Assembly (NCBI GenBank): GCA_041483895.1 | Contig: JBGPGO010000007.1 | Span: forward strand, 96,001-160,000 | From: Fimbriimonadia bacterium | GTDB taxonomy: Bacteria; Armatimonadota; Fimbriimonadia; Fimbriimonadales; JABRVX01 | Length of the DNA: 64,000 nucleotides | Reading direction: 5' to 3' | Shown: positions 2,796 through 36,813 of the stretch, piece by piece | Layout of the letters: the number at the start of each line of letters is the position of its first letter | How positions within the stretch are numbered: the first letter of the stretch is position 1 | The notes under the pieces: model-generated | Told to the model about the DNA's origin: nothing | Database searches by the model: none | What the model saw: the letters and a program-made list of their open reading frames with translations, nothing else | Position numbers and translations under genes: made by a program

Positions 2796-5700
2796 TTAGG
2801 TGGTTGCCGCCGGCTGTGGGACTGGCGCAATCGCCAATCGGTGATTCAACCAGGCGCCCAAGGCGAGGATAGCCTCATCCGCGGCACGAAAGACCGGTAG
2901 GCCTGCCGCGCGGACGGCGGATGCCAGGGGATCGAACAGCGGACCGGCGTCACAGACAAACAGGATGGGTTTCCCGCCGCAGTCTTGCCAACCGCCGCAG
3001 AGAGAAGGAAACGCCGCCGGATCACCCAGTTGTGATTCCAGCGTCCTCAGTTCGGGGGCAAGCGGAACGCAGGAAACGATGACCGCGTCCACGCCATCAT
3101 CTTTGAGCGCCGCGCGCACGATTTCGTCATAAACGGCTTCATCCGCCATCGGGGTCAAATCCATTGGGTTGCGTACATCGACGATGCCACCCAAGTTGCG
3201 CCTCGAAATCACCGACCTCAGTTCCTCACGAAGGGAATCGCTCAGATCGGCAAATTGGGCTGTGGCCCCATCGGCGAGCATGGTATCGGCGAGGCTGACT
3301 GCTTCCATCCCCGCATTCGTGACCGCGAAGACGCGATTCCCTCGGGCGGTCCTATCCGCCAACAGAGTAGCCGTTTCAAGCGACTGGTTGAACTCCCGGA
3401 AGTTCTCGACAACGATCGCTCCCGCCGCATGCATCGCTGACTGGCAAATGTCATAGTCTCCCGCCACAGCGGCGGTGTGACCGGCCGCCGCGAGCCTTCC
3501 CGCCTCGGTCCGGCCCGCCTTATAGAAAACAACCGTCTTGCCCGACTTCGCCAATTGGCTTACGGCGCGCAAAGTCTCCAAACCGTCCAAATTGGCGAAA
3601 CCCTCCACGTAGACGCCGATCACCTGAACGTCCGGCCGGTCGTGAAGCGCCCAAAGCAAGTCTGATACGGTCACGTCCGCCTGGTTGCCGATGGAGATCG
3701 TGAACGCCGGGCGCAAATGCTCCAGGCTGCTAAGGCGCGACACGATAAACGCCCCGCTTTGGGACAGTATCGCCACCGGTTGCGCGGGGCGATCGTCTTG
3801 GCGGGCCATCTTGTTCTTAGGAATGAAGAACGTGTCATAACCTCCGGGCCGGGACTGTATACCCATGCAATTGGGGCCGAGGACCACGCATCCGCCGTCC
3901 GGCCGCTGTCTGCCCTCTCGTATGGCCTCCCGAATCTCCTCGCCGATTCCGTGCGAATCTTCCGTCTCCCCTCCACCGCCGGAGATGATTATCGCCGCAC
4001 GCGCCTTGCCGGTGGAGTTAACGGCCGAAAGGATCGAGGGCGCCTCCTTCGATGCGGTGGAAATCACGAGCAGGTCCACGGGTTCCGGCAGGTCCGCGAT
4101 GTCCGGAACGCACCGAACGCCGTCGATTTCGGTGACGTCCTTCTTTACCACCGTCACTTTGTCCTTGGGAAAACCGGATTGGAGAATGTTTCCGAGAATG
4201 ATCCGTCCGATGCTGTCCGGTTTTGAGGAAACGCCGATCAATGAGATCGAGTCCGGCTCCAGCATCTTTCGGACGTTCTCTTTTGGGCGCGCCGGGGCGG
4301 CCTTGGCGGCTGTTTGCAACCAACCGCGTCCATCGAGCGGAATGAGGCGTTGATTGCGGAAGGCGAACGGATTGACCTCCAATTCTCCGATGTCCGGCCC
4401 CTCTTCCCCGCGATCCACGCAGAAACCGCGGGCGATAGCGATGAACGCCCGGAAGCACCGGAGCAGCTCCCCGTCCGACACCCTCCGCTCATGCCCTCTT
4501 GCCTTGCCCGCCAAGATATCGTACGCGGCGGTCTCCATGAACCGCTCAAGAAACGTCTCCGCGTCCGTATCCATGGCGACCGCTTTCGCTACAGCGACGC
4601 CCGGCCGCATTTTCGTGGCAAGGTACTCCGTATCCAGACCGCCCAGCCCTGCTGCGATAACAGGTCCAAATTCGCGAGTCGCACGTATCCCCACAAATAG
4701 CTCGCCGCCGAAACCGCGGAACTTATTCTCCACAAACTCCACAACCAGCGCGCCGGCGACGGTGGCGACGCCCGTATGTCGCTCGATAAGACGGTCAATC
4801 TCAGTTCGCACCGCTTGAATCGTCTTCGGAACGAAGGCCACCGCGTGCGCATCCGTTTTGTGAACGATCTCTGGCGACACCAGCTTCACCACCACCGTGT
4901 CGCCGGGATACTGCTCCAGCGCTTCTCTGGGAATCATCGACCCCTTCGGCACAAACGAGTATCGTGGCGGCGAAATCGCGCCCACCAGCTCCACAAGCGA
5001 ATACACCTCATGCTCGTAGAGTCTCCGTCGGCCTTCTTCATAGGCGTTCATCAGGATGCTCTCAAAAGCATGAGCCTCCGCGCCGGAAAGCCGGTCCTCC
5101 CGGCCATGACACTCGCCCCACGACTCGGTCAGGAGACCGGTCGCATCAAGTGGGAGACCGGTCGCATCAAGGAAATCAACAAGCGACTCGGTCAGGAGAC
5201 CGGTCGCATCCAGTGCATCCTCGGAGGCAAGATGCTCGGGGGAGAGCGTCTCGATCCACTGCCGTACGGACTTCGGTGAACCGCCTCGTTGCAGCCCATC
5301 GACATAGGCGGCAGCCGCCGTTCGTCCGAAGCGAAAAGCGCGGAGGTTGGCGTCTACCACCCGCTCCCCTTTCGCGGCGAACAGCTCCCGGATCGCCCCC
5401 TCCAATTCCGACACCGTGAAACCGAGGAAAAGCGAAGCGGCCCCCATCGCGACGGTGTTCGCGGTCATCGTGCTGCCGGCCGCCCGCGCAAGCTGCAACA
5501 TGCTGATCGCCACATGGTTCGGGAAGCCGACAAGATGGTCGAGAACGGATTCGATGGGCGGATAGTTGCCGATGTTCGTTACCGCGTTCGTGCTCGCGAT
5601 AACTGTGCCGTTCGGCTTTAGCATCTCGGCATACCGAAGGGCTTCCAGCGGCTCGATCGCCAAGATCATGTCCGCCTCGCCCATCGGAATCATATCGCTG

Positions 5701-5879
5701 AATATCTCCGAGCTGGAGATGCGCAGATGGGAATAGACGGCCCCACCCCTCTGAGACATGCCATGCACTTCCGCCTGCTTTACGTGCATTCCCTTTCCGA
5801 GCGCGGCAATGGAAAGCCCCCTGGCGATGGTGAGGATCCCTTGCCCTCCCACTCCGGCCAAAACGATGTTGTGTTCCAT
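2796..5879 (-). CDS. Fusion of indolepyruvate oxidoreductase beta (IorB), an ATP-grasp domain and a CoA-binding ADP-forming acyl-CoA ligase
   Basis: N-terminal GVGGQGIL/AEVHGMSQRGG (IorB); KLVSPEIVHKTD and ELEVNPF (ATP-grasp); GPNCMG, SQSGAF and GHTAAVAG phospho-His (ACD alpha). Confidence 0.88.
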   Translation of the reverse strand: MEHNIVLAGVGGQGILTIARGLSIAALGKGMHVKQAEVHGMSQRGGAVYSHLRISSSEIFSDMIPMGEADMILAIEPLEALRYAEMLKPNGTVIASTNAVTNIGNYPPIESVLDHLVGFPNHVAISMLQLARAAGSTMTANTVAMGAASLFLGFTVSELEGAIRELFAAKGERVVDANLRAFRFGRTAAAAYVDGLQRGGSPKSVRQWIETLSPEHLASEDALDATGLLTESLVDFLDATGLPLDATGLLTESWGECHGREDRLSGAEAHAFESILMNAYEEGRRRLYEHEVYSLVELVGAISPPRYSFVPKGSMIPREALEQYPGDTVVVKLVSPEIVHKTDAHAVAFVPKTIQAVRTEIDRLIERHTGVATVAGALVVEFVENKFRGFGGELFVGIRATREFGPVIAAGLGGLDTEYLATKMRPGVAVAKAVAMDTDAETFLERFMETAAYDILAGKARGHERRVSDGELLRCFRAFIAIARGFCVDRGEEGPDIGELEVNPFAFRNQRLIPLDGRGWLQTAAKAAPARPKENVRKMLEPDSISLIGVSSKPDSIGRIILGNILQSGFPKDKVTVVKKDVTEIDGVRCVPDIADLPEPVDLLVISTASKEAPSILSAVNSTGKARAAIIISGGGGETEDSHGIGEEIREAIREGRQRPDGGCVVLGPNCMGIQSRPGGYDTFFIPKNKMARQDDRPAQPVAILSQSGAFIVSRLSSLEHLRPAFTISIGNQADVTVSDLLWALHDRPDVQVIGVYVEGFANLDGLETLRAVSQLAKSGKTVVFYKAGRTEAGRLAAAGHTAAVAGDYDICQSAMHAAGAIVVENFREFNQSLETATLLADRTARGNRVFAVTNAGMEAVSLADTMLADGATAQFADLSDSLREELRSVISRRNLGGIVDVRNPMDLTPMADEAVYDEIVRAALKDDGVDAVIVSCVPLAPELRTLESQLGDPAAFPSLCGGWQDCGGKPILFVCDAGPLFDPLASAVRAAGLPVFRAADEAILALGAWLNHRLAIAPVPQPAATT
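5121..5210 (+). repeat. Family A hairpin repeat cluster (2 full + 1 half copy), in frame in the IorB-ACD linker
   Basis: CGACTCGGTCAGGAGACCGGTCGCATC at 5121-5147 and 5184-5210; translated as DATGLLTES...DATGLP...DATGLLTES. Confidence 0.95.
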
Positions 5880-5884
5880 GGTTG

Positions 5885-7495: not shown

Positions 7496-7517
7496 GTCTC
7501 CGGTACCGTCCGATTGG

Positions 7518-7614
7518 TTGCGACTCGGTCAGGAGACCGGTCGCATCCTTCGAGTACCATCCCTTCAAAGTCAGACTGTGAAGGGATGGTTGCGAAGTCT
7601 GACTTTGAAGGGAT
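7518..7614. repeat. Intergenic mosaic: family A copy plus family B copy and a partial inverted B
   Basis: A at 7518-7547, B at 7556-7590, partial reverse B at 7595-7614. Confidence 0.9.
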
Positions 7615-7617
7615 TAA

Positions 7618-8577: not shown

Positions 8578-9497
8578 GTCTGGATCGGCAGAACCCCAAG
8601 GGCCTCGGCGACCGCCCGAATATGGTCCGGAGTCGTCCCGCAGCAACCCCCAAAGATGCGGACCCCTGCCGCGATGGCCGACACCGCGCAGTGGGCCAGT
8701 TCCTCCGGTGGTGCCAGATACACGGTCGAAGCGCCGGTAAATCTCGGTTCCCCCGCATTCGGCTGGAGCAAGACCGGCACGCCCTGAGAGGCCGCAACCA
8801 ATTCGGGCGCCAAGTCAACGTAATCCGACATGCTGAGGTTAGTTCCGCAGTTTGCCCCGACCGCATCGGCGCCCGCTGAAAGGGCGGCGGCAAGCGCATC
8901 GCGGACCGTCGCGCCCATCATCGTTCGGAAGCCTTCGCCGGTTCGCTGGAACGCATAGCTTGCCAGTACCGGCCAGTCCCCGGCCTCCCGGGCGACGCCC
9001 ACTGCCAAGGACATCTCAATCGGGTCTGCCATCGTTTCCACAATCACTCCATCCGCGCCGGCTTCTTGAAATGCCTCAATCTGCACGCGGGTCGCCGTGA
9101 GAAACTCATCCTCCGTGGTCTCTCCGTATGGTTCCAAGAACCCGCCAAAGGGGCCGATGTCGCCCAACACCCAACCGTCGTCTCCGACGGCCCGGCGGGC
9201 AATTTGGACGGCCGCCGCGCTCAGCTCGCCACAGCGGTCGGCAAGGCTATGCCGTTCCAATGCCAGGGCGCTGCCGCCGAAAGTATTCGCCGAAACGACC
9301 CGCGATCCGGCCTCCGCGTACGAGCGATGGACATCTTCGACCGCTTCCTGATGGTCGATATTCCAGAGCTGCGCGCATGTGGCGGCGGTAAGTCCGGCGT
9401 GGAGGAGCATGCTTCCCATCGCGCCGTCCATCAGAAGCACTCCTTCCGCGAATTGCTGATCGAGCCAGGCCTGCCCTGAGCTTGTCGAACGGGTCAT
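8574..9497 (-). CDS. Stand-alone homocysteine S-methyltransferase domain (MetH N-terminal-like)
   Basis: DGAMGS, ANTFG, GANC, QPNAG and GGCCGTTPDHI zinc-binding motifs. Confidence 0.9.
   Translation of the reverse strand: MTRSTSSGQAWLDQQFAEGVLLMDGAMGSMLLHAGLTAATCAQLWNIDHQEAVEDVHRSYAEAGSRVVSANTFGGSALALERHSLADRCGELSAAAVQIARRAVGDDGWVLGDIGPFGGFLEPYGETTEDEFLTATRVQIEAFQEAGADGVIVETMADPIEMSLAVGVAREAGDWPVLASYAFQRTGEGFRTMMGATVRDALAAALSAGADAVGANCGTNLSMSDYVDLAPELVAASQGVPVLLQPNAGEPRFTGASTVYLAPPEELAHCAVSAIAAGVRIFGGCCGTTPDHIRAVAEALGVLPIQT
9470..9493 (-). repeat. Family D short hairpin repeat inside the Hcy-methyltransferase N-terminus
   Basis: Minus strand CCCGTTCGACAAGCTCAGGGCAGG, read as RSTSSGQ; related to 54249-54272 and 55984-56006. 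Confidence 0.6.
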
Positions 9498-10714
9498 GCC
9501 GTCGCCTCACCCGCTACCATCCCTTCACAGTCAGACTGTGTAGGGATGGTAGCGGGTGGTCCGAGGTGCCAGACCTTGCCCATCGGCTTGAGGTTGATTC
9601 CATGACCCCAACGCTTGCGGGCAAGGCGGAGATAGTAAAGATAGCTGTCAAGCGGGACGTCGGGCGGGACGCGGTGGTCGCAAAACGGTATGTATCCGCC
9701 TTCCTCGACGAGCGGGGCCAGGCGGTCGATCTCCTCTCGAATGCCACGGCGGCTTCCCGCTAAGATGTGCTTGTCGAAACCGCCCATCATGAGAAGGTCC
9801 TTGCCATATTCCTTTCTGTACCGCAGAGGATCTGCCCCCCAAGTGCCGATCTCGACCGGAAACATGCAGTTCACCCCGACGCCCATCCATAGCGGGATCA
9901 GGTTCTCGATGTTGCCGTCGCAGTCCAGCCATATGATGTCCACGCCGTGTTTGTGCAGCAGGTCCGTGATTCTCCGATAGCGCGGCATCAGGAATTGACG
10001 GAAGTGGTCGAGGCCCAAAAGCGGGCCGCCGGAATAGCACATGTCCTCCCACATGCCGCAGGCGTCGAACTGAACCCCCGAATCGAACGCCTTTTGTAGA
10101 TACCCGCAGACCAGATCGGCAATCGTGTCCACCATCTCTTCGAACCACGCGGGGTCGTCATAAACGACGTAGGAGACGTTTTCGACTCCCATCCAATTGC
10201 GAATCCACCCGTACAGGCTGCCGCCAGGGAGGGTGAGAACGTTTGGCCGGTACGGGTTCTTCCACCGCTTGATGCGCTCGGACCAAGCGGGAGGGAATCG
10301 GCCCGGCGAATCGGGATTGAGGCGCGGTTTGTAGTGTTTCTCCCAACTCTCCCGGTCTGTAAGCAAGTGGCTTACGTGCATCGGGATGGAGCCCATGAAC
10401 TTGTGCCGAAGGACCCGAACGCCGTCCTCGCCTTGCACGACCTCCATGTCGCCGCGATCTTCGATGACCACTCGTTCGAACCATGGATCGAGCGATTCGC
10501 GGATGCCGACCCAGCCCTCATACCGATCCATGCCGAAGAAGTCGCAGGCTGTATTCTCGTCCAGATGCTCCGGCAGGCCCTGCCCTTTCCAAAGTTCGAT
10601 CGTTTCCGACCAAAACCCGAAGTCGCAGATGGGGACTCGGTCGGGAGAACTTGCGACTCGGTCAGGAGACCGGTCGCATCGCATGGTCGCCAGGAATCGT
10701 TCGCGGTCGTTCAT
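9494..10714 (-). CDS. UroD/MtaA-CmuA family methyltransferase-like protein, carrying repeat A near the N-terminus and repeat B at the C-terminus
   Basis: MNDRERFLATM start; WEDMC, DCDGN, GGFDK and PFCDHRVPPDV motifs. Confidence 0.85.
   Translation of the reverse strand: MNDRERFLATMRCDRSPDRVASSPDRVPICDFGFWSETIELWKGQGLPEHLDENTACDFFGMDRYEGWVGIRESLDPWFERVVIEDRGDMEVVQGEDGVRVLRHKFMGSIPMHVSHLLTDRESWEKHYKPRLNPDSPGRFPPAWSERIKRWKNPYRPNVLTLPGGSLYGWIRNWMGVENVSYVVYDDPAWFEEMVDTIADLVCGYLQKAFDSGVQFDACGMWEDMCYSGGPLLGLDHFRQFLMPRYRRITDLLHKHGVDIIWLDCDGNIENLIPLWMGVGVNCMFPVEIGTWGADPLRYRKEYGKDLLMMGGFDKHILAGSRRGIREEIDRLAPLVEEGGYIPFCDHRVPPDVPLDSYLYYLRLARKRWGHGINLKPMGKVWHLGPPATIPTQSDCEGMVAGEATA
9510..9556. repeat. 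Extended family B palindrome, in frame at the C-terminus of the 9494-10714 gene
   Basis: CCCGCTACCATCCCTTCACAGTCAGACTGTGTAGGGATGGTAGCGGG; encodes PATIPTQSDCEGMVAG. Confidence 0.8.
10651..10680 (+). repeat. Family A copy, in frame in the UroD-like N-terminus
   Basis: TTGCGACTCGGTCAGGAGACCGGTCGCATC; read on the minus strand as CDRSPDRVA. Confidence 0.95.
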
Positions 10715-10715
10715 A

Positions 10716-11795: not shown

Positions 11796-11801
11796 TGCGC
11801 G

Positions 11802-12428: not shown

Positions 12429-12575
12429 GAAGACTCCTTCGCGGATGCGCGGCCAGGGGATTTGCCCCCGACCGTGTCCTCAATCCCTATTATGAGGCAC
12501 AAGAAATCCAAATTCCAGGCGAAATTGGCTGAATCGGCAGAACCGTTTGCCAAATTCGCGATAAAATTCACACAA

Positions 12576-13412
12576 GTGACGAATCCACCCAAAACGGCGG
12601 TGATTTTGTGCTCGGTGCTGGAAACCGAGGTGGAGCATTTCGCCAGAGATCTCACTCATATCGTTCACATCGCAAAACTGCCTCAGGGGCTGCACGACGA
12701 TCCGCCGCGCCTGCGACGGGAGCTTCAGTCGCTGGTCGACCAGATCGAGTCGGAGCATAGCCCGGAGGTGATCGCCCTCGTCTACGGCCTGTGCAGCCGA
12801 GGGACTGAGGGGGTGTTCACGAAAACTTCCCGCCTCGTGATACCGAGAGCCCACGACTGCATCACCCTCCTGCTTGGGAGCAAGGAGCGGTACGCGGATT
12901 ATGTGCGCTTGCATCCCGGGACCTATTGGTACAGCCCCGGCTGGAACCGCCACCATATCCCACCGGGTCCAGAACGGCATAGGCTCCTATATGAGGAATA
13001 TCGCGATAAGTACGGGGAGGATAACGCGGATTATCTTATGCAGATGGAGCAGAATTGGTTCACCACCTACGACCGGGCAACGTATGTGGACATGGGTGTC
13101 GGGGCGACGGAAGATGACATCCGTTTCACAAAAGGGTGCGCAGAGTGGTTGAAATGGAACTTCGATCGCCAGCACGGCACGCCGGATCTTTTGAAAGCGC
13201 TGCTGACGGGCCAATGGGATGAGGAGCGCTTCCTCGTGTTGGAACCAGGCCAGACCTTCTCGATGACGGCGGACGAGCGCATCATCGACATCGTAGACGA
13301 GCGACTCGGTCGGGAGACCGGTCGCATCACGGAGCGGGAGAGCGACGAGCGATTCGGTCAGGAGACCGGTCGCATCGACATCGCGCGGGACCCCAGTGCG
13401 GATCACGATTGA
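12576..13412 (+). CDS. DUF1638-family protein associated with corrinoid activation; C-terminal tail extended by repeat A
   Basis: GLH..P..LR, YGLCSRG, HDCITLLLGS and GTYWYSPGW; start placed at GTG 12576. Confidence 0.8.
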   Translation: MTNPPKTAVILCSVLETEVEHFARDLTHIVHIAKLPQGLHDDPPRLRRELQSLVDQIESEHSPEVIALVYGLCSRGTEGVFTKTSRLVIPRAHDCITLLLGSKERYADYVRLHPGTYWYSPGWNRHHIPPGPERHRLLYEEYRDKYGEDNADYLMQMEQNWFTTYDRATYVDMGVGATEDDIRFTKGCAEWLKWNFDRQHGTPDLLKALLTGQWDEERFLVLEPGQTFSMTADERIIDIVDERLGRETGRITERESDERFGQETGRIDIARDPSADHD

Positions 13413-13456
13413 GGATGCGACCGGTGGGGATGCGACCGGTTTCCCGACCGAGTCGC
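13301..13456. repeat. Family A cluster across the DUF1638/RACo junction
   Basis: Forward copies at 13301-13328 and 13349-13376; reverse half at 13414-13425; reverse copy at 13429-13456. Confidence 0.92.
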
Positions 13457-15090
13457 TCGTTATCGGTCCGGACAAACTGGGACTGCGGCTGACCCGCATC
13501 CTTCGGGGCGAGGGATTGCCGCTCAACACCCGGTGCGGGGAAAAGGATATGTGCGCCGGCTGCACGATCGAGCTGGTGCGCGGGTCTTTGGTCCATGTGG
13601 AGACGGGGGAGGTCGCGCTGCCGGGCGAAATCCGCGCCTGCCAATATATGGTGGGATCGGACGCTGAAGTCGTGTTGCGAATTCCGCCTCGGGCGTTGCT
13701 TGCCTACGCGCCGCAAGTGGTGGCCGACTATCGAATCAACGTGCCCTACGCGCGGGATCCCCTTGCCGATTCGGGGCTGGGAGTGGCGGTCGATGTTGGA
13801 ACGACGACGGTGGTGGTCCAGCTTGTCGATCTGCTCACCGGAGATACTGTGGGGAGGGCGGCGGGTTTCAATAAACAGATGCACTTTGGCGATGACGTGC
13901 TGACTCGGATCAACCTCTGCTCCACGGATGTCGCCATGTTGGCGGAACTTCAACGGGCCATCGTCGCGGAGACCCTGCGACCGCTCTTGGATGAGGCCCT
14001 CGCCGGGGCAGAACGGCAGAGGGACGAAGTGTCTTGCATTACGGTTGCCGGCAATACGACGATGCTGCATTTGCTCGTTGGCGAGGACCCAAGTCCGATG
14101 GGGATCGCTCCGTTCACGCCGAGGTTCTTGGATCGAGGTCCGTTTCCGGCCGGCGCGATCGGGTTGGAACCGGGCGACGCGAACGTCCATCTGCTGCCTT
14201 CCATCGCCGCCTACATCGGCGCGGACCTGACTGCCGGGCTGTTGGCGTCCGGATTGGCGTATGAGGAGGGACCGAGCCTGCTTGTGGACGTGGGGACCAA
14301 CGGCGAGATTCTTTTGATGCACGGCGGGGAGATATCCGGCTGCGCGACGGCCGCGGGACCGGCGTTTGAAGGGTCTCGGCTGACCTGCGGCCTGCGGGCG
14401 GGCGAGGGCGCGATTTCGCACTTGTCCCTCGAAGCCGATCCGTTCGCGGTGCGCTACGAGGTGATTGGCGACGGTGGCGGCCGGCCGACGGGACTATGCG
14501 GATCGGCGTACATCGATTTCCTTGCGGAGGGCCGACGCGTGGGTCTTCTCGACGAGATCGGGAGGTTTTCTTCCGCCTTGGGGTGCGACTCGGTCGGGAG
14601 ACCGGTCGCATCGAACGACGAGCGACTCGGTCAGGAGACCGGTCGCATCAATGGCATCAAGGAGACCGGTCGCATCAAGAGTGGGAGATGTTTCAAAGTG
14701 GCCAAAGGCCAGGGCGCCCGGGCGATCGTCGTCTCTGAGGCGGATGTGGCTTCCTTGCTGCAGGCCAAAGCGGCAATTGCGGCTGGGATATTGACCCTGT
14801 TGGCCCGGCACAAATTGGACTCGGCTGACGTCAAAACGCTCTATCTGGCGGGCGGCTTTGGCATGCACCTGGACATCGGAAACGCCATCGCATGCGGTCT
14901 GCTTCCGGGCTTTAGCGTCGAACAGGTGCAGCTGGTCGGCAATGCCTCGCTGGCCGGGGCCACCCTGGCGTTGCTCGACAAGAACCTGCTGGCGGAGATG
15001 AAGACGCTGCGAGAGAAGGTCGAAGTGGTAGAGCTCAACCTCGATCCATCCTTCGAGGACCGCTACATCAGCCAACTGTCATTGCCGTAG
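13396..15090 (+). CDS. ASKHA/DUF4445 reductive activator of corrinoid proteins (RACo) with N-terminal 2Fe-2S-like domain
   Basis: C-x5-C-x2-C...AC; DVGTTT, DVGTNGE, AAGPAFEG, GLCGS and LAGGFG motifs. Confidence 0.9.
   Translation: MRITIEDATGGDATGFPTESLVIGPDKLGLRLTRILRGEGLPLNTRCGEKDMCAGCTIELVRGSLVHVETGEVALPGEIRACQYMVGSDAEVVLRIPPRALLAYAPQVVADYRINVPYARDPLADSGLGVAVDVGTTTVVVQLVDLLTGDTVGRAAGFNKQMHFGDDVLTRINLCSTDVAMLAELQRAIVAETLRPLLDEALAGAERQRDEVSCITVAGNTTMLHLLVGEDPSPMGIAPFTPRFLDRGPFPAGAIGLEPGDANVHLLPSIAAYIGADLTAGLLASGLAYEEGPSLLVDVGTNGEILLMHGGEISGCATAAGPAFEGSRLTCGLRAGEGAISHLSLEADPFAVRYEVIGDGGGRPTGLCGSAYIDFLAEGRRVGLLDEIGRFSSALGCDSVGRPVASNDERLGQETGRINGIKETGRIKSGRCFKVAKGQGARAIVVSEADVASLLQAKAAIAAGILTLLARHKLDSADVKTLYLAGGFGMHLDIGNAIACGLLPGFSVEQVQLVGNASLAGATLALLDKNLLAEMKTLREKVEVVELNLDPSFEDRYISQLSLP
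14584..14676 (+). repeat. Family A cluster (2 full + 1 half), in frame within RACo
   Basis: Encodes CDSVGRPVAS-NDE-RLGQETGRI-NGIK-ETGRI. Confidence 0.95.
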
Positions 15091-15105
15091 CGCTCTCGGA
15101 CGTTG

Positions 15106-15315
15106 TGGCTCGGGCTCCGGATAGGTCGTATAGGACGTATAGGACGTATGGGTCCTATCGGCAAGCATTGCGAGCCCGGTCAGGAGACCCCGGAAGAACT
15201 TGCGACTCGGTCAGGAGACCGGCCGCATCCAGTGGAAGTTCCGACCCCCTTCACAGTGCGACTGTGAAGGGATAAAGTACTTGCGACTCGGTCAGGAGAC
15301 CGGTCGCATCCAGTG
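15106..15315. repeat. BIME-like mosaic of families C, A and B
   Basis: C (9-bp TATAGGNCG tandem) at 15106-15163; partial A at 15169-15190; A at 15201-15229; B at 15247-15271; A at 15281-15310. Confidence 0.9.
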
Positions 15316-15347
15316 CTAGACGCCTGCGACGACCTCCATCCGGTTAG

Positions 15348-17991: not shown

Positions 17992-18180
17992 GATGCGACC
18001 GGTCTCCTCACCGAGTTGCAAACATGCGACATGAATCGAACCGTATGGCTCGCCCTCCGAATAGGTCATATGGGTCGTATATGTCGTATAGGTCCTATCG
18101 GCAGCGGGGGACTGGATTTGCGTCGATGCGACCGGTCGCATTGAGGAGAACTTGCGACTCGGTCAGGAGACCGGCCGCAT
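17992..18180. repeat. Inverted family A pair enclosing a family C array
   Basis: Reverse A at 17992-18021; C at 18046-18103; short palindrome ATGCGACCGGTCGCAT at 18126-18141; forward A at 18152-18180. Confidence 0.88.
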
Positions 18181-18185
18181 GGAGG

Positions 18186-25813: not shown

Positions 25814-25940
25814 CATCCGTCTCGGCCATCGCCGAGAGAAAATCATGGCATATATATTCGCAATTTCGCAAGGGACAACTTTCGAACTTTCGCAGGAATC
25901 GCTTCGCTTTCGGTTAGACGTGGGACCTGGATGCGACCTG

Positions 25941-26141
25941 GATGCGATCGGTCTCCTGACCGAGTCGCAACCATTCTCTAGGTCTCCTGACCGCCCACCG
26001 TTTGTCTTGTCAAGAGACGCCGGAAGAACCTGCGACTCGGTCAGGAGACCGGTCGCATCTTTGGGCATCTTTGTGGTTGTGTCAGCGAAAACCTGCGACT
26101 CGGTCAGGAGACCGGTCGCATGGAAGGAGACTGGTCTCATC
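25941..26141. repeat. 119-bp inverted doublet of family A (25941-26059) plus extra copies
   Basis: Reverse complement of 34065-34183 with a few changes; extra A at 26094-26121 and a degenerate half at 26126-26141. Confidence 0.92.
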
Positions 26142-26175
26142 GAAGAGTGTCAGCGGATTGGACGGCTCCCGTCCC

Positions 26176-27606: not shown

Positions 27607-27754
27607 GGTTTTATGTTCACCATCGGGCGGCAGCGACCGCCCACGTGGGCACTATTGAAGCCGAGCAGTTCACCACATTAGTTTACTTGATCGAAGAATG
27701 TCCGACGTCCCCAACTTAGGCCGATGACGTCCGCTCCTTGATGCAAGTCTACCC

Positions 27755-27963
27755 GTCGTATAGGACATATAGGACTTATACGACATATAGGACCGTTCTG
27801 GTTGCGACTCGGTCAGGAGACCGGTCGCATCGCATCCAGCATCGGAGTTGCGAGCAGGTTCTTTCAGGGTCTCCTGACCGGACAAACGCCGGGCGGTCAG
27901 GAGACCTAAAGAATGGTTGCGACTCGGTCAGGAGACCGGTCGCATCCAGTGACCGGTCGCATC
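27755..27963. repeat. Mosaic of a family C array, an A copy and a 5'-truncated A doublet
   Basis: C at 27755-27793; A at 27802-27831; doublet remnant at 27854-27946; half copy at 27951-27963. Confidence 0.9.
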
Positions 27964-27968
27964 CAGTG

Positions 27969-29569: not shown

Positions 29570-29584
29570 TGGAACACAACCTCC

Positions 29585-31504
29585 TCATGGGTAATAACGG
29601 ATCACAATCGTCTTTGCCTTGACCGGATCGACGAGATCGACCACCTGCCGCGCGATGCGGTCCGTTTTGTGATGCCGGCCGGGTGATGGCTCACGGCGGT
29701 ATCCGATCTCGACGCCTGACTCCGTGAGCGCTTCCGTGCCACGCGTGACCGCGACCAGCGCCGGCACGACCCACGCATGTGAGAAGCGGGTAAACGGCGC
29801 TGTCGCGATGAGAAGTGTGATTGAGGACAGGTGATACAGATAGATCGTGAGGATCCAGGCGGAACCGCCCAACCGGGCCAGGAAGAAGACGAAGAAGCCG
29901 CTCAATATCGTGTGGAACAGCAGGTTGACGAACAGGAAATCGCGTCCCAGCGTGACCCCGTTGTCAATGAATTCGTCTTTTTGGTACCGATACTTCACAT
30001 AGAGGATGCCAATGAACACGGCGAGGCCGGAGACGAGCGGCAGCACTTTCAGCGCGCTCCCCAGCGGCAACTCCGCGCGCATCGGGTTGTAGATCGCGAT
30101 TAGGATGTCGGCGAGCATCAGGCCGCAGAAACCGTACAGGATCAACCCGTGCATAAACCATCGCAACGGGCTGCGCCGAAACAGTGAGGCAACGAGGAAG
30201 CCGTCAACAATCATCGCGCGCAAGGCAATCAGCGCGGCCTTGCCGGTACCAAATTTGCGCAGGTATGGCCTGGCCTGCCGGATGCCCGTGCAATCAACCC
30301 AATACCAGAGCACTTTCAAACCGAACAAGAATGCGAACCCGAAGACGAATAGGAAGTAGATGGACAGCTTCTGAGGGGTGAGCAGGCTGCCGATCTTGTA
30401 GGTCAGCGGGACCTGGTCGGGAAGCCACGGTTTCAGGCGGACTTCATCTCGAATGGAATTCAGGTCGCTGTCAGACAAAGCGTCGGCCGAAAACGCCGGC
30501 ATCATGCCCTTGCCCTTTCGGACGATCGCCTGAAACTCCGCATCTGTGATTTTCGTCTTGGCAAGGGGTGGACCGAGTCCTCCCATCGCGGCGGCGCCGT
30601 GGCATCCGACACAGTTCGAGGTTGAGAAAACATCTGTTTTCGGGCCCTGCCCCATCGCGACGGCGGCAACGAGCAGAGTTAGGCCGAGGAGCGATGTAAT
30701 GCGAATAAAGGCCTTCTTGAATAGCGACAGCGACTCGGTCAGGAGCCCGGTCGCATCGACCTTCTTCAAGACTGACATCGGCCGAGTCGCGTGGACTGCG
30801 GGCCGGGCTATCTCAGTGACCCCAATCCCCACAAACGCTTCTTCCGTGCCTCCGTGCAGAGTTGCGGTCTCTTGTTCCGACATGGGTCCGAGGTAGCAGG
30901 TGGCAGGATTCGTCTTGCACTCCGGCAGCAGGTGGAACGGCTCGCGCCCGGTCCCGATCGCTTCTTCGACGATATATCTGGAGATTGCGCTATGATCATC
31001 TTCCAGGTCGCCAAAAATGCGCGCGGTGGTCGGGCAAGCGACGACGCATGCGGGATCGAGACCTTTGTCCACACGGTGAGCGCAGTACGTGCATTTGCGC
31101 GCGACGTTCTCTTTCAGGCGCGGCCGAACGTGCTTGGTTTCGTACTCCATATCGTCCTCGAGATACCAGCGGTCCACTTTCTGCAAATACACGTTGCCGT
31201 ATGGGCAGGCGGAGACGCATGCGCCCGTTCCTTTGCATCGGTCTTGGTCGATGAGCACGATGCCGTCATCGCGGCGGAAGATCGCCTTATTCGGGCAGGC
31301 CTTCAGGCACGGCGCGTCGTCGCAGTGGTTGCACAGAATGGGCAGATAGAAGCGCTTGACGGCGGGATATTTGCCGGCCTCGATATTGATTACGCGGGCG
31401 AAAAAGGTATCCACCGGCGTGCCGTTCTCCTGCTTGCACGCCACGGTGCAGGCATCGCATCCGATGCAACGCGTCATGTCGATCAGCATCGCGTACCGCG
31501 CCAT
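29585..31504 (-). CDS. Tri-domain electron-transfer protein: Fe-S beta subunit + monoheme cytochrome c + NarI-like membrane domain
   Basis: Four Cys clusters, one being CKGTGAC (3Fe-4S type); TM helix; CVGCH...MMP; ~5 TMs with YH-x17-H ending in PFTRFSH. Confidence 0.8.
   Translation of the reverse strand: MARYAMLIDMTRCIGCDACTVACKQENGTPVDTFFARVINIEAGKYPAVKRFYLPILCNHCDDAPCLKACPNKAIFRRDDGIVLIDQDRCKGTGACVSACPYGNVYLQKVDRWYLEDDMEYETKHVRPRLKENVARKCTYCAHRVDKGLDPACVVACPTTARIFGDLEDDHSAISRYIVEEAIGTGREPFHLLPECKTNPATCYLGPMSEQETATLHGGTEEAFVGIGVTEIARPAVHATRPMSVLKKVDATGLLTESLSLFKKAFIRITSLLGLTLLVAAVAMGQGPKTDVFSTSNCVGCHGAAAMGGLGPPLAKTKITDAEFQAIVRKGKGMMPAFSADALSDSDLNSIRDEVRLKPWLPDQVPLTYKIGSLLTPQKLSIYFLFVFGFAFLFGLKVLWYWVDCTGIRQARPYLRKFGTGKAALIALRAMIVDGFLVASLFRRSPLRWFMHGLILYGFCGLMLADILIAIYNPMRAELPLGSALKVLPLVSGLAVFIGILYVKYRYQKDEFIDNGVTLGRDFLFVNLLFHTILSGFFVFFLARLGGSAWILTIYLYHLSSITLLIATAPFTRFSHAWVVPALVAVTRGTEALTESGVEIGYRREPSPGRHHKTDRIARQVVDLVDPVKAKTIVIRYYP
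30730..30757 (+). repeat. Family A copy, in frame in the Fe-S/cytochrome c linker
   Basis: Read on the minus strand as DATGLLTES. Confidence 0.93.
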
Positions 31505-31507
31505 CGC

Positions 31508-33949
31508 TTAGCCCCCCACCTTCCGGATATCGACTCGCGTGTCCTTCCAGTGCTGGCCGGGGGCGTACACCGCCGGAAGGAAGTAGTTCTCATGGGTTGG
31601 CTTCACCAGCTGATGCGTGGTGACGGTGTGGTACTTGCCTTTTGCCAGATACCGGTCCCACCATGCATGATCCACGCAGAGCACGCCCGGTTTGATGGTT
31701 TCTGTAACCAGAGCCCAGAGCTCGTAGGAGCCGTTTGCGTTGAATATCTCCACTTGGTCGCCGTCGGCGATGCCGCGCTTGGCCGCGTCGCGTGGATTGA
31801 TCTCGACCACGGGCTGTCGATTGAGGTTGAGGAGAAGAGGGTTGTTGCTGTGGGTGGAGTGGACCCGCCATTTCGAATGCGGCGTGACGATGTTGAGTGG
31901 CATTTCCTGCTCTTCCTTCGGAAGGTAATCGTATGCAGGCTTGTAGATCGGGACGCTCTCGCCGAGCTTTGCGAAGACCTCTTCCTCTTTATAGAACTCC
32001 ATCCTGCCCGTCTTCAGAAACTCGCGCTGGGCGCCCTCCGGGAAAGGGTAGGCACGGGGCGGGAACAGTTTGTCTTCGTGGAACTGCTCGTCCAGCCCGA
32101 CTTCCGGGTCGTGTACGTTCAGCCGGACTGGACCCTCCAGCAATTGCTCCAGTGTGATGCCCGCGGATTCCTTCCCGCCCGTTTCGAGAAGGATGCGAAT
32201 CGCGTCGTGCTCCGTTAAATCGAAGTAGTGTGAGAGGGTAGGATCGATGCGCTTGATGAGCTCTTGCACAACCCAGAATTCGGTCTTGCTATCGAACTGC
32301 GGCTTCACCACCTCTTGCTGTATTTGGAGATACGGGTGGCAGCCGGTGCCGACCAGCTCGTACTTCTCCCAAAAGGTTGGAGCGGGAAGAACGATGTCGG
32401 CGTACTCGCAGGTTGGCGACATCGAGAAGTCTGAAACAACGAACAGCTCCATTTCATCAATCGACTGCTTCAGCGGACCAGAAAATTCGGTGACGAGCGG
32501 ATTGGCGTGGGACACGAACATCATCTTTACGCCGTGAGTTGGGTAGTGGATTTTCGGGTTGATCGTTGCCGTGGGCTTCCCCATTACGACGTAGTGCATA
32601 GGCAGCGATTTGGGCCGGCGACCCTCGGGGAACCAGAACCCGCTGACGTCAATCCGGAAGTGGTGTTGGCCGGAGTAGATGGACACCCCTTCGCCCGGTT
32701 TGCCGTAGGCGCCGGCGAGAGCGCCAAGGAGCAGGATTGCCCGAATGGTCAGGTCCCCGTGCATACGGTGATTGACCCCCATGCCGATGATGATGGAGGC
32801 GGGGCGAGTCGTGGCGTACTCCCTTGCGACCTGGCGAATCGTCTCCGCGGGCATGTCCGTCAGTTTCGCCGCGTTCTCGGCACGATATTCTTCCCGCATG
32901 ATCGTCTCTTCGAGCAGCTCGAAGACTGGCCGCACCTGTACCTCTTGCCCGTTGATTGTTACGACATGGGCGCCGCGAAAGACGGGCTTGTAATCGTCCG
33001 GAAGGCGAAGAGAATCCATCGACAGCTTGAAGAGGCTGTCGGTAGCCTCGTTCCAGGTCACAAACTCGTTCTCAGAGCCCATCCCAACGTCGGACGCCCG
33101 GAGGCGCATCCCGTTGTCCTCACGGATTAGGGTCGCACAGTCCGTGTACTTTCGGAGGAACTCCCAATCCACAAGATCATCTTCTATCAGCACCCGGCAA
33201 AAGGCGAGGGCGAGGGCGCCATCGGTCCCAGGAGTGATGGGAAGCCATAGGTCGGCCCCTTTCGCCGTCTGGCTGCATCGGGGGTCGATGGACACGATCT
33301 TGCAGCCGTTCTGCTGCTTGGCAAAGCGAGTGAGGAATTGGCCGTCTGGGATTCGCGTTTGGAAAACGTTGCTGGCCCACAGTATCGCGTACTTCGCAAA
33401 TCCCCAACTTCGCGACTCGCACTCCACAGAGTCGATCCCCAGTGTGTGGGTGAATCCCATCGAGATGTCGCCATTGAAATCGTACGCTGTGGCGAATGAC
33501 ATGCCGAGCAGGGAGGCCATGCGGACCTGCGCGCCCTTCTGCACGTACCCTGTCCCCACCACTTGGTTGAACAGCAACGCGTGGTCCATCCCATACTTGT
33601 CTCGGATCTCCTTCATTTTGTCCGCGATGGTATCGAGCGCCTCATCCCAGCTCGCCACGCGCCATTTCCCCTCCCCGCGCTCCCCAACGCGGATCAGAGG
33701 CGTCTTTATCCGATCGGGTCCGTAGATAATGTGGGTCATCGCCATCCCACGCAGGCAGCCCCGGGGGTTGTAGTCGCTGCAAGAATAGTCGCCGGCCGGC
33801 TTCAGGTCCACAATTATGTCGTCGACGACGGTGGCGAGCCAACCGCAGGCTCCGGTGCAATTCGGGCTGTCGGTCGTCCGGACTACCCTCGCATCCCCCT
33901 TCGGTTCTTCCTGCTTTTGCCTACCCGGAACTCCGTACCGTGTGGCCAT
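31508..33949 (-). CDS. Molybdopterin (bis-MGD) oxidoreductase catalytic subunit, DMSO-reductase type II (NarG/EbdA/SerA-like), no Tat signal
   Basis: DSPNCTGAC...NPRGC FS0 motif; YDFNGD (Asp Mo-ligand position); PGTDGALAL, ADIVLP and TPHSKWRVHS. Confidence 0.88.
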   Translation of the reverse strand: MATRYGVPGRQKQEEPKGDARVVRTTDSPNCTGACGWLATVVDDIIVDLKPAGDYSCSDYNPRGCLRGMAMTHIIYGPDRIKTPLIRVGERGEGKWRVASWDEALDTIADKMKEIRDKYGMDHALLFNQVVGTGYVQKGAQVRMASLLGMSFATAYDFNGDISMGFTHTLGIDSVECESRSWGFAKYAILWASNVFQTRIPDGQFLTRFAKQQNGCKIVSIDPRCSQTAKGADLWLPITPGTDGALALAFCRVLIEDDLVDWEFLRKYTDCATLIREDNGMRLRASDVGMGSENEFVTWNEATDSLFKLSMDSLRLPDDYKPVFRGAHVVTINGQEVQVRPVFELLEETIMREEYRAENAAKLTDMPAETIRQVAREYATTRPASIIIGMGVNHRMHGDLTIRAILLLGALAGAYGKPGEGVSIYSGQHHFRIDVSGFWFPEGRRPKSLPMHYVVMGKPTATINPKIHYPTHGVKMMFVSHANPLVTEFSGPLKQSIDEMELFVVSDFSMSPTCEYADIVLPAPTFWEKYELVGTGCHPYLQIQQEVVKPQFDSKTEFWVVQELIKRIDPTLSHYFDLTEHDAIRILLETGGKESAGITLEQLLEGPVRLNVHDPEVGLDEQFHEDKLFPPRAYPFPEGAQREFLKTGRMEFYKEEEVFAKLGESVPIYKPAYDYLPKEEQEMPLNIVTPHSKWRVHSTHSNNPLLLNLNRQPVVEINPRDAAKRGIADGDQVEIFNANGSYELWALVTETIKPGVLCVDHAWWDRYLAKGKYHTVTTHQLVKPTHENYFLPAVYAPGQHWKDTRVDIRKVGG

Positions 33950-33999
33950 AGCTACTCCTCCTCATCGTCTGTATTCTATGGCTGAGGGAGAGGAGCGGT

Positions 34000-34017
34000 C
34001 TATGATTTGCGTCATAG
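34000..34017. promoter_or_regulatory. Candidate Crp/Fnr-type site upstream of the molybdoenzyme operon
   Basis: CTATGA-tttgcg-TCATAG, centred ~30 bp upstream of a minus-strand TAGAAT (33973-33978). Confidence 0.65.
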
Positions 34018-34064
34018 CGCTTGGAGAATCAACTTGGTAACCTAAAGTGGCCAGGGAGATTCCT

Positions 34065-34183
34065 GATGCGACCGGTCTCCTGACCGAGTCGCAGGTTCTT
34101 CCGGGGTCTCCTGACCGGACAAACGACGGGCAGTCAGGAGACCTAAAGAATGGTTGCGACTCGGTCAGGAGACCGGTCGCATC
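34065..34183. repeat. Complete 119-bp inverted doublet of family A (REPIN-like)
   Basis: Terminal 29-bp inverted A copies plus inner GGTCTCCTGAC/GTCAGGAGACC arms. Confidence 0.93.
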
Positions 34184-34234
34184 GCGGGACTAAGCTGAAG
34201 TGGCTAGGGAGATGGGCCATCGAATCGCCAAAAG

Positions 34235-34297
34235 TTTTGACTAGTCAAAAAATAATCTTAGCCGGTGTTGACCAATAGCGCCGTACCCGAATATACT
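34235..34297 (+). promoter_or_regulatory. feo promoter with upstream 16-bp palindrome
   Basis: TTTTGACTAGTCAAAA at 34235-34250; TTGACC-18bp-TATACT at 34268-34297. Confidence 0.55.
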
Positions 34298-34306
34298 GAT
34301 GGGAGC

Positions 34307-34861
34307 ATGCCACAGATGACGCTTCGTTCGGAAGAGGTCCGGGACCCGCAATGTAAGGCCGAGTGCCGGGATTCCATCGTCGCGATCGTCGGCAACCCAA
34401 ACGTCGGCAAGAGCGTGCTCTTCCATCGATTGACCGGCCGGTACGTCACGGTTTCGAACTACCCCGGAACGACGGTCGAGGTGTGCAAGGGCGGTTGCCA
34501 ATTAAAGGACAAGAGCCTCTGCGTGATCGATACGCCGGGAATGTACGGCCTCAACCCGTTTACGGAAGAGGAGCGGGTGGCCCGCAGGCTGCTGAAGGAG
34601 GCCAAGCCGGACCTGGTTCTGCATGTTGTGGATGCGAAGAACCTGCGCCGCATGCTTCCGCTCACCGTTCAGCTCATCGAGGCCGGCTTCAAGGTCGTCC
34701 TCGTGTTGAACATGATGGACGAGTTAGAAAGGGCCGGCATGTCGGTCAACACGCGCGCCTTAAGCGAGAAGCTCGGAATCCCGGTCGCCCCGACCGCCTG
34801 TATCGTTGGCCGGGGCGTATGCGGGCTGCAGGACATTATCCATGAGCAGCTCCGCTCCTAG
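34307..34861 (+). CDS. feoB: FeoB N-terminal GTPase domain (split FeoB)
   Basis: GNPNVGKS, NYPGTTV, DTPG and NMMD. Confidence 0.9.
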   Translation: MPQMTLRSEEVRDPQCKAECRDSIVAIVGNPNVGKSVLFHRLTGRYVTVSNYPGTTVEVCKGGCQLKDKSLCVIDTPGMYGLNPFTEEERVARRLLKEAKPDLVLHVVDAKNLRRMLPLTVQLIEAGFKVVLVLNMMDELERAGMSVNTRALSEKLGIPVAPTACIVGRGVCGLQDIIHEQLRS

Positions 34862-36407
34862 CCTCGACCTGACCTATTCCCCTGCCGTTGAGCAAGCTAT
34901 TTCTGAGATCGAGGACCATCTGGTCGGCGATTACGGTCTTTCCCGCCGCGCGATTGCGATGCTTGCGCTGCAAGGCGACGAAGAGGTCTTGGAATGGATC
35001 GACGCGCAAGAGGGACACAAGGCGGCAGAGGCGGTTCGAGCCGGCATCGCGAACAACTTGCGACTCGGTCAGGAGACCGGTCGCATCGAGGAGACCGGTC
35101 GGATCCAGCCGGAGAACAACTTGCGACTCGGTCAGGAGACCGGTCGCATCCAGCTTGCGATTTCGATGGAATTGCAGGAGTGGGCCTCGAACGTCGCGGA
35201 CGATGCGCTTTCCACGCCAACCGAGAGGAAGACTCCGTCTGGTGAATGGCTCGGACAGGTGTGTGCTTCGCCGGTCTTCGGCCTCCCGATCTTGGTCCTG
35301 GTCGTCTATTTCGGCCTATACCAGTTCGTTGGCGTCTTCGGCGGCGGGACCGTGGTCAATTGGCTCGAAAACGGGGTGTTCGGAACCTATGTCAATCCAT
35401 ATGTGACGAATTTCTTCGCGGCAATTGTGCCTTGGGAATCGATCCGAATGCTGTTCGTGGGCGAGTACGGCATTATCACGCTTGGCGTCACCTACGCGAT
35501 CGCATTGATCCTTCCGCTGGTCACGTTCTACTTTCTGGTCTTCGCGGTTCTGGAGGACAGCGGCTACCTGCCGCGCCTCGCGATGCTGGTCGACCGGGTA
35601 TTCAAGAAGCTAGGGCTCAACGGCCGCGCGGTGATTCCGATCGTGTTGGGATTCGGCTGCGATACGATGGCAACGATCGTGACGCGGATTCTGGAGACGA
35701 AGCGCGAACGGATCATCGCCACAGTTCTACTCAGCCTCACCATCCCCTGCTCCGCACAGCTCGCCGTAATCATGAGTCTGCTGGCGATGCGGCCCGCGAA
35801 ACTCCACCTGCTGGGTCTATCCATGGCTACGGGCCTGCTGGTTTGGGCATCCGTGCTGGTCATTGTTTTCTTGTTCGCGGGATTCCTCGCCGCGCGCCTC
35901 ACGCCGGGAAAAGCGACGCCCTTCTTCCTGGAGTTGCCGCCCATGCGCTGGCCGAGCTTTGCGAACGTTGTCGCAAAGACGCTCTCACGGCTCCACTGGT
36001 ATTTCCTGGAGGTCTTTCCGCTCTTTATCTGGGCGAGCGTGATGATCTGGATCGGCCAGATCACGGGCCTATTCGCGATCGTCGTCAACGGCCTAGAGCC
36101 GCTTGTCCGGTTCATCGGGCTGCCAAACGAAGCCGCGACGGCGTTTCTGTTCGGTTTCTTCCGAAGAGACTATGGAGCGGCCGGGCTCATGAAGGTCGCG
36201 GGCGAAGGCGGCCTAACCGGCACGCAGATCGTGGTGGCATGCGTGACACTGACGCTTTTCCTGCCATGCGTGGCGCAGTTTCTGATTGTGAAGAAAGAGC
36301 GCGGCTGGAAGATGGCGATCGGGATGGCTCTGACGACCTTCGTGGTGGCAATCTCCGTTGGCGCTGGATTGTCACGACTTCTTGCCGTGTGGACATTATC
36401 ACTGTGA
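34842..36407 (+). CDS. feoB: FeoB membrane domain (split FeoB)
   Basis: LEDSGYLPRLA, GFGC, IPCSAQL, ELPP and LFLPCVA gate motifs. Confidence 0.92.
   Translation: MSSSAPSLDLTYSPAVEQAISEIEDHLVGDYGLSRRAIAMLALQGDEEVLEWIDAQEGHKAAEAVRAGIANNLRLGQETGRIEETGRIQPENNLRLGQETGRIQLAISMELQEWASNVADDALSTPTERKTPSGEWLGQVCASPVFGLPILVLVVYFGLYQFVGVFGGGTVVNWLENGVFGTYVNPYVTNFFAAIVPWESIRMLFVGEYGIITLGVTYAIALILPLVTFYFLVFAVLEDSGYLPRLAMLVDRVFKKLGLNGRAVIPIVLGFGCDTMATIVTRILETKRERIIATVLLSLTIPCSAQLAVIMSLLAMRPAKLHLLGLSMATGLLVWASVLVIVFLFAGFLAARLTPGKATPFFLELPPMRWPSFANVVAKTLSRLHWYFLEVFPLFIWASVMIWIGQITGLFAIVVNGLEPLVRFIGLPNEAATAFLFGFFRRDYGAAGLMKVAGEGGLTGTQIVVACVTLTLFLPCVAQFLIVKKERGWKMAIGMALTTFVVAISVGAGLSRLLAVWTLSL
35058..35150 (+). 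repeat. Family A cluster (2 full + 1 half), in frame in FeoB
   Basis: Encodes LRLGQETGRI-EETGRI-QPENN-LRLGQETGRI. Confidence 0.95.
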
Positions 36408-36420
36408 GGTCCGCTCCCGG

Positions 36421-36813
36421 ATGATGACCTGCGCAGGATGCGGCAGACAGTTCAGCGAAAGGGATGCGGACGCCGGCTGTCAGGGGTGCGGCGCGCACGG
36501 AGGCTGCCACCTGATCAAGTGCCCCTACTGCCACTACGAGCAGGCGGCGATGCCGAGATGGGTGGCCAAACTCAAGGACCTGATGACCGGCAAGAAGGGC
36601 AACTTCACACCGCTTTACCAGAACCGCCCGGCGCCTGACCGGTCAGGAGACCCCGGAAGAACTTGCGACTCGGTCGGGAGACCGGTCGCATCCAGCGGAC
36701 CGGTCGCATCGGGGGAGCCAGGCGAACTTGCGACTCGGTCAGGAGACCGGTCGCATCCAGAGCATCCAGAACGGTCGCATCCAGAGCATCCAGAACCGGA
36801 GATACCGGAATAG
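36421..36813 (+). CDS. Small Cys-rich (Zn/Fe-S) feo-associated protein with a repeat-derived C-terminal tail
   Basis: CAGC...CQGC...C...CPYC; the tail is translated family A repeats. Confidence 0.6.
   Translation: MMTCAGCGRQFSERDADAGCQGCGAHGGCHLIKCPYCHYEQAAMPRWVAKLKDLMTGKKGNFTPLYQNRPAPDRSGDPGRTCDSVGRPVASSGPVASGEPGELATRSGDRSHPEHPERSHPEHPEPEIPE
36639..36781 (+). repeat. Family A cluster (half doublet, 2 full copies, fragments)
   Basis: Full copies at 36663-36692 and 36728-36757; CATCCAGA tandem decay follows. Confidence 0.92.

Follow-up and report, generated by a model that had tools for sequence, protein, structure and literature searches.

A GATG-tagged hairpin repeat, very probably a REP, inserted in frame in protein-coding genes of a Fimbriimonadia bacterium

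Introduction

That repetitive extragenic palindromic sequences (REPs) can write peptides into enzymes has been known in principle since 2013, when approximately 70 intragenic REP entries were tabulated for Opitutus terrae, as singles and dimers contributing 7–50 amino acids (aa) to enzymes (Di Nocera, De Gregorio and Rocco, 2013; PMC3733652). Here we analyze a GATG-tagged hairpin repeat with similar behavior in a 64-kb stretch of a Fimbriimonadia bacterium from sediment (Armatimonadota; GCA_041483895.1, contig JBGPGO010000007.1, positions 96,001–160,000), hereafter the window. An earlier note on this DNA had described a 27–29 bp selfish hairpin that colonizes genes in frame and had named the Rickettsia palindromic elements (RPEs) as precedent, a place that belongs rather to the REP inserts of O. 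terrae.

The canonical tags of REPs are defined as GT[AG]G, subclasses with atypical hairpins exist, and in-frame copies occur even within the genes of REP-associated tyrosine transposases (RAYTs; Quentin et al., 2018; PMC6006769). The RAYT of E. coli, TnpA-REP, binds the single-stranded hairpin and cleaves the DNA not directly beside it but at a short dinucleotide farther off (Ton-Hoang, 2012, PMC3333891; Corneloup, 2021, PMC8266576). CGTC-tagged repeats, including the RPEs of R. conorii, apparently have no dedicated transposase (PMC3733652). RPEs and other fusions were reviewed by Delihas (2008, 2011; PMC2229807, PMC3184786), and the effect of an RPE was shown to be near-neutral for guanylate kinase (PMC2229807).

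Results

The repeat and its distribution

The repeat is very probably the REP of a species-specific REP/RAYT system (REPtron). This assignment is based on its GATG tag and bulged hairpin, on inverted copies flanking a RAYT gene, and on the occurrence of doublets, tandem arrays and in-frame inserts. The window holds 25 copies of the 25-nt core (≤3 mismatches), in line with the earlier count of about 25, all located between 5120 and 36754; none was found in shuffled sequences, and none is expected by chance. The stem-loop proposed before, with one bulged T (GCGAC-T-CGGTC/AGGA/GACCG-GTCGC), folded as drawn, with z-scores of −4.1 to −5.9 in four folds of repeat copies. Read on the opposite strand, the unit of approximately 28 nt consists of a 5′ GATG tag followed by the bulged hairpin, and the tag's final two bases are able to pair with the end of the stem. 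The 5′ boundary is sharp, with GATG in 96–100% of the copies and random sequence beyond it, and the 3′ end is a fuzzy tail.

The draft genome (3.95 Mb, 43 contigs, 58% GC) contained 151 copies with the 25-mer (≤3 mismatches) or 153 with the 28-mer (≤4 mismatches), arranged in 80 clusters. Homologs of named origin indicate that it belongs to Armatimonadota, probably Fimbriimonadales. The repeat was absent from all 40 relatives searched, a set that includes the unpublished genome G036; exact-pattern scans of genome and metagenome contig collections returned no match, and 400 other genomes of the phylum yielded one single 17-nt core match. A length of 28 nt, high copy number and lineage restriction are as in described REP/RAYT systems.

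The element had been regarded as a lone hairpin, but it is often part of larger arrangements. Thirty-five of the 80 clusters are single copies, many are direct tandem arrays with locus-specific spacers, and eight are simple inverted pairs of doublet orientation; half copies are also present. A 119-bp inverted doublet carries GATG outermost at both ends and folds as one long hairpin (z −12.8). Such doublets, resembling REP doublets forming hairpins (REPINs), were found at 34065–34183 and three further loci and comprise a minority of copies; the unit at 34065–34183 recurs at C6:99656 and, in frame, at C8:64369 (C plus number denotes a contig). At C17:48, C23:46–196 and C11:71902–72186, tandem units of 58–75 bp, each a REP together with a spacer specific to the locus, lie at contig ends and in arrays and resemble the amplification of bacterial interspersed mosaic elements (BIMEs).

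Target-site duplications were not in excess over shuffled flanks (of 56 single-orientation clusters, one had a duplication of at least 6 nt, against a null mean of 0.8), and the combination of target-site duplication with terminal inverted repeats (TIRs) shared with an insertion sequence, typical of DDE-type miniature inverted-repeat transposable elements, was not found. The copies showed no replication-strand bias (23 vs. 23, as judged from the weak GC3 skew of a draft genome).

A candidate transposase gene

By reading between inverted clusters and scanning for motifs, an intact gene of 178 aa with HUH and catalytic-tyrosine motifs was located at C12:73415–73951. One full copy and partial copies of the repeat lie upstream of it and eight downstream, inverted, with GATG outermost. 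The protein passed the cut-off of NCBIfam NF047646 (REP-associated tyrosine transposase; 85.5 vs. 80 bits) and matched E. coli TnpA-REP (4er8) weakly (E 0.011). The repeat was previously taken for a minimal stand-alone element; it appears instead to be a REP/REPIN family whose cognate RAYT gene lies on C12. Mobilization and cleavage by this protein are inferred by analogy with the E. coli enzyme.

Eight RAYT-like genes, falling into five repeat classes, were recognized in the genome (C3, C5, two on C6, C12, C20, C21 and C27). The other seven have flanks with other repeat families, and the GATG repeat was not seen in the flanks read; none of the six genes returned by a Pfam Y1_Tnp search of the genome was flanked by it either. 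Sequence comparisons turned up no close RAYT accompanied by this REP. Near-identical RAYT-like genes on C6, C21 and C27 share one REP, and those on C3 and C20 share a GTAG-tagged long repeat. A second hairpin family of approximately 110 copies flanks its own RAYT (C5:229654–230248) and has copies in the window at 2753–2792, 7555–7594, 9515–9554 and 15241–15280, of which that at 9515 is read in frame at the C-terminal end of the UroD-like protein described below and is missing in three homologs.

In-frame inserts in the window

The 13 coding copies reported before were all recovered within 1–3 nt of their described places and translate to the five peptides given for them. Their seven host open reading frames (ORFs) had been described as apparently intact; on sequence comparison, six carry clean, lineage-specific in-frame inserts, and the seventh, a Cys-rich ORF, is possibly frameshifted. 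As proposed, homolog comparisons placed the inserts mostly in loops, linkers and termini. All six clean hosts are single-copy in the assembly.

IorB-ACD (ORF 2796–5879, minus strand) has gained 27 aa in the linker between its POR and ATP-grasp domains, an insert missing in 64/64 aligned homologs (64 of the 119 listed were aligned). A role of the host in supplying GAT at the insertion site was considered and could not be established, because the spacer in IorB is similar to one found at an unrelated locus. IorB-ACD homologs of other Fimbriimonadaceae/Fimbriimonadales (P0003, P0004, P0006, P0020 and P0023) bear repeat-like inserts at other sites, presumably also derived from repeats. Together with the TrmD inserts of genomes L114 and L115 described below, these suggest a widespread in-frame invasion of genes by repeats within the order.

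The UroD-like protein (9494–10714, minus strand) is net 8 aa longer than its homologs, which lack the insert in 3/3 cases. At its 3′ junction (10635–10680), host codons that are conserved in orthologs (DRV) agree with the repeat's 3′ arm for approximately 9–12 nt, hinting at microhomology-assisted insertion or trimming. The DUF1638 protein (ending at 13412, plus strand) is extended by approximately 32 aa that are absent from 6/6 homologs, and the inserts of RACo (13396–15090, plus strand) are missing in all full-length homolog rows, from 11 loci. Two RACo copies in the 14585 region are 37 nt apart and are therefore read in two different frames. The Fe-S/cytochrome c protein (29585–31504, minus strand) exceeds a 78% identical orthologue by 15 aa, and 0/119 homologs bear the repeat peptides.

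The FeoB ORF (34842–36407, plus strand) contains 23 additional aa, missing in all 19 fully visible homolog rows of 24. In the segment 34265–37031, FeoB is split into separate GTPase and membrane ORFs, which are followed by a Cys-rich domain and FeoA; several homologous ORFs are of approximately 490 aa, and these sequences suggest that the split is common to the relatives.

AlphaFold models of RACo and FeoB had low predicted local distance difference test scores (pLDDT) at the inserts. Values below 50 were obtained for residues 10–16 and 396–429 of RACo (mean 83; confident outside both inserts) and for 74–112 of FeoB (mean 70, with other weak stretches). The modeled low confidence fits loops, although shallow alignment contributes to it.

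The Cys-rich domain (from 36421) and FeoA are joined in a fusion in 3/22 homolog hits. FeoA (36813–37031) follows directly after the repeat cluster in a different frame, and a linker-like stretch near it matches a fused Cys-rich-FeoA homolog. Because FeoA resumes in another frame after the cluster and fused homologs exist, a frameshift is suspected: the cluster may represent either a C-terminal extension of 60–70 aa or the frameshift of a former Cys-rich-FeoA fusion. The Cys-rich stop codon TAG overlaps a possible GTG start, by which a frameshifted fusion was perhaps rescued.

The earlier note had asked for reads across the insertion junctions. With contigs used in their place, the copies at 13301, 13349 and 13429 were bridged by runs X2 and X3 and that at 5120 by X1, which is possibly the source sample. 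These four coding copies differed by at most one letter in contigs of separate runs, whereas the internal RACo insert (14585–14676) could be followed only junction by junction, its whole span not being bridged. The repeat plus shared flank reaches 31–32 nt and leads to cross-mapping between loci. Variants of +6 and +3 at 14615, considered as frame-keeping alleles, were discarded on this account, their spacers matching loci on C15 and C17.

Coding pattern across the genome

With coding regions called by our own hexamer gene model, 31 ORFs contained 58 of the 153 copies, and 38 of these copies were clearly internal; the two DUF1638 copies bring the total to 60 in 32 ORFs. A Pfam family was recognized in 20 of the 23 hosts scanned among the 26 outside the window, which include Ffh, Era, TrmD, WaaA, HemW, MutY and a DnaE-family polymerase. 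The inserts in ffh (+55 aa), era (approximately +70), trmD (approximately +68) and waaA (+44) lie in single-copy, open genes and are absent from both same-family relatives. The genes ffh, era and trmD are essential in model bacteria. In Ffh, TrmD and WaaA, the insert is a mosaic to which a second repeat family contributes, and in more distant relatives the loop of trmD (genomes L114 and L115) and, slightly, that of waaA carry unrelated inserts.

The GATG repeat occurred inside genes more frequently (33%) than nine other repeat families (0–26%). Tested against models, as had been suggested, 33 of the 80 clusters were coding, compared to 86% expected in the absence of selection and 63% on the assumption that in-frame inserts are all neutral. 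The share is below both expectations, indicating that selection removes many insertions. A search for hidden frameshifted hosts among the non-coding copies passed its thresholds for the DUF1638/RACo overlap alone; the short Cys-rich/FeoA case falls under them.

All five stop-free frames are used, as described earlier, but unevenly: 35 of the 60 coding copies are read in the DATGLLTES (DATG) frame, followed by RLG (8), ATRS (8), CDSV (6) and CDRS (3). Considering single-orientation coding events, 19 of 26 were in DATG (p = 8e-9 vs. even use). DATG and RLG, the latter tied with ATRS for second most used, are the sole frames with a positive hexamer coding score. The sixth frame (MRPV) is indeed never used; its stop, however, exists only in the A-loop variant (97/153 copies), so that 56/153 are stop-free, and the frame is avoided even in the 16 coding copies in which it is open. 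The bias toward the neutral/acidic DATGLLTES frame most likely results from selection acting on the translated product.

A local hotspot

The copies of the window are listed in Table 1. The window is a hotspot, with 13 clusters in 32 kb vs. 0.65 expected. The 210-kb contig C7 carries its 25 copies solely in this block, and 21 of the 25 have the same orientation. Local amplification, the sole explanation offered here, may account for the hotspot. The block contains genes of anaerobic metabolism, namely corrinoid methyltransferases, RACo, complex-I/hydrogenase-like subunits, a molybdopterin oxidoreductase and Feo. Short 9-nt tandem repeats beside REP clusters (15116–15170, 18056–18110 and 27755–27800) form a further repeat family.

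Table 1. Copies of the GATG repeat in the window; the strand is that bearing the GATG tag.
Feature	Position	Strand	Remarks
IorB-ACD linker	5120..5210	-	two full copies and one half copy, in frame
Intergenic single copy	7520..7547	-	adjoins hairpin of second REP family (7555-7594)
UroD-like methyltransferase	10653..10680	-	in-frame copy after 11 conserved N-terminal residues, CDRSPDRVA frame
DUF1638 C-terminal tail	13301..13376	-	two copies, RLG(R/Q)ETGRI frame
RACo N-terminal beta-hairpin loop	13429..13456	+	one copy, half copy just upstream; DATG frame
RACo ASKHA domain, length-variable loop	14585..14676	-	two copies and half copy
Intergenic tandem pair	15202..15310	-	encloses hairpin of second REP family
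Inverted pair	17992..18181	.	most likely intergenic, upstream of probable NPCBM/melibiase-family gene start
119-bp REPIN-like inverted doublet and one tandem copy	25941..26122	.	upstream of probable ArsR start
Intergenic two copies	27804..27946	-	inner doublet arms between them
Fe-S/cytochrome c interdomain linker	30730..30757	-	in-frame copy, DATG frame
119-bp REPIN-like doublet	34065..34183	.	intergenic
FeoB cytosolic helical domain	35060..35150	-	two copies and half copy, in frame
Repeat cluster between Cys-rich domain and FeoA	36639..36800	-	

Discussion

Proposed mechanism and alternatives

By analogy with E. coli TnpA-REP, the RAYT would bind the single-stranded hairpin, cut at a short dinucleotide some distance from it and rejoin the strands. 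Such cutting and rejoining could lead to dispersal with variable flanks and to local tandem amplification without target duplication, and the negative duplication test fits this mechanism. Insertions that break frame or fold would be purged, those in frame in permissive loops would persist as near-neutral baggage, and these loops would then collect further repeats, other families included. The claim that a selfish element writes new segments into enzymes is supported to the extent that lineage-specific segments were added to proteins that seem functional, chiefly in loops and linkers and at termini.

Several observations weigh against the REP/RAYT reading or parts of it. The tag is GATG instead of GTAG/GT[AG]G, and the C12 RAYT was missed by the Pfam Y1_Tnp search. 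The repeats found beside RAYT relatives of 27–39% identity are unrelated non-GTAG hairpins, and this core was present at none of the 38 examined of 68 metagenome RAYT-relative loci. The coding calls come solely from the hexamer gene model, and three of the 23 scanned hosts outside the window were without a Pfam family. The FeoB insert sits in a helical region of constant length among the visible homologs, with no obvious linker, and the low pLDDT at inserts is partly due to missing alignment depth. No empty allele was seen in the contigs of four runs.

A rather unlikely but live partial rival retains the same element and makes the frame and strand bias mechanistic: in transcribed genes, where the sense strand is transiently single-stranded, the RAYT would act on that strand and join at host GAT(G), mostly Asp codons once the sixth frame has been removed. 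GATG was indeed on the sense strand in 20 of 26 single-orientation coding events (p = 0.009), and host GATG in called genes is eightfold more common at codon phase 0 than at phase 1, close to the observed 19:1. Intergenic copies, however, showed a weaker tendency (15/25 sense), a difference that is not significant (Fisher p = 0.24). Phase 2 sites are as common as phase 0 sites and were never used despite 16 stop-free coding copies, a two-strand GATG-target model was rejected (p = 2e-6), and target duplications showed no excess.

The inserts could also be real in the DNA and absent from the proteins, if splicing or ribosome hopping removed or bypassed them in the RNA. Inserts of up to approximately 70 aa are large for essential proteins, and the element is a stable hairpin; against this, all verified inserts are in frame and free of stops, and the use of frames follows their protein-likeness, both expected only if the inserts are translated, and no Rfam family was matched in positions 1–40000 of the window. 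We regard such a bypass as extremely unlikely. It is very unlikely, too, that the inserts are assembly artefacts or mark recently dead genes of a metagenome-assembled genome. The cross-mapping through the shared 31–32 nt and the possible frameshift at the Cys-rich/FeoA site point in this direction, but the contigs of separate runs bridging four coding copies do not, the hosts (ffh, era and trmD among them) are the sole gene copies in the assembly, and misassembly is not expected to favor in-frame, loop-located inserts in a single frame.

A more far-reaching form of the REP/RAYT reading, which we consider unlikely, holds that a GATG-guided RAYT drives an ongoing burst filtered at the protein level, with DATGLLTES as a tolerated linker cassette. 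Together with up to nine other families, the repeat would have built the mosaic loops of 44–70 aa (Ffh, Era and TrmD), and the 32-kb block would record local, expression-linked spread. If such a burst took place, some mosaic loops of essential proteins may have gained a role.

The frame bias and the avoided open sixth frame provide a measurable signal of selection on the translated peptide, and the inserts form a natural map of insertion tolerance in essential proteins. Here an in-frame coding repeat has both a tag other than GTAG and one specific transposase candidate, and this pairing allows a direct biochemical test of whether RAYT guides can differ from GT[AG]G.

Comparison with known systems

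New here are the GATG tag, the Armatimonadota host, the candidate mobilizer and the measured frame bias. No frame-bias measurement was seen in the available parts of PMC3733652, and neither PMC3733652 nor PMC6006769 has the string GATG in its main text. Among the papers listed in a search of open-access literature, none mentions Armatimonadota; a similar family could be present in figures and supplements (REP consensus, REPtron and TIR lists).

The closest counterparts are GTAG-17/18/19 of O. terrae (PMC3733652), likewise tagged hairpins of 20–40 bp that occur in frame in enzymes as singles, dimers and clusters. Several peptide frames, several REP families and RAYTs per genome, and a DnaE-family polymerase as host are also shared with O. 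terrae. The differences lie in the tag, the host phylum and the mosaic inserts of approximately 70 aa in ffh, era and trmD.

As in the REPtron of E. coli (PMC3333891, PMC8266576, PDB 4er8), a single-copy gene with HUH motif and catalytic Tyr is flanked by inverted repeats, the stem is bulged as in group 2 REPs, and locus-specific tandem arrays occur as in BIME amplification. In E. coli, by contrast, GTAG is essential and REPs are described as intergenic, and the similarity of the C12 protein to TnpA-REP is weak. The two inverted REPs with spacer that fold as one long hairpin are those of REPINs (Bertels and Rainey, 2011; PMC3116915), whereas here many clusters are single copies or direct tandems.

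In-frame insertion in conserved proteins is shared with the RPEs of Rickettsia (Delihas, 2008; PMC2229807), although the RPEs reviewed there are much longer (105–146 bp). The GATG repeat further differs from RPEs and other CGTC-tagged repeats in having a candidate dedicated transposase, and its tag is outside the canonical series (GTAG/GTRG/GYRG; RAYT groups 2 and 3). Altogether, the repeat shows the testable features of a REP/RAYT system and is neither a canonical GTAG REP nor a CGTC REP.

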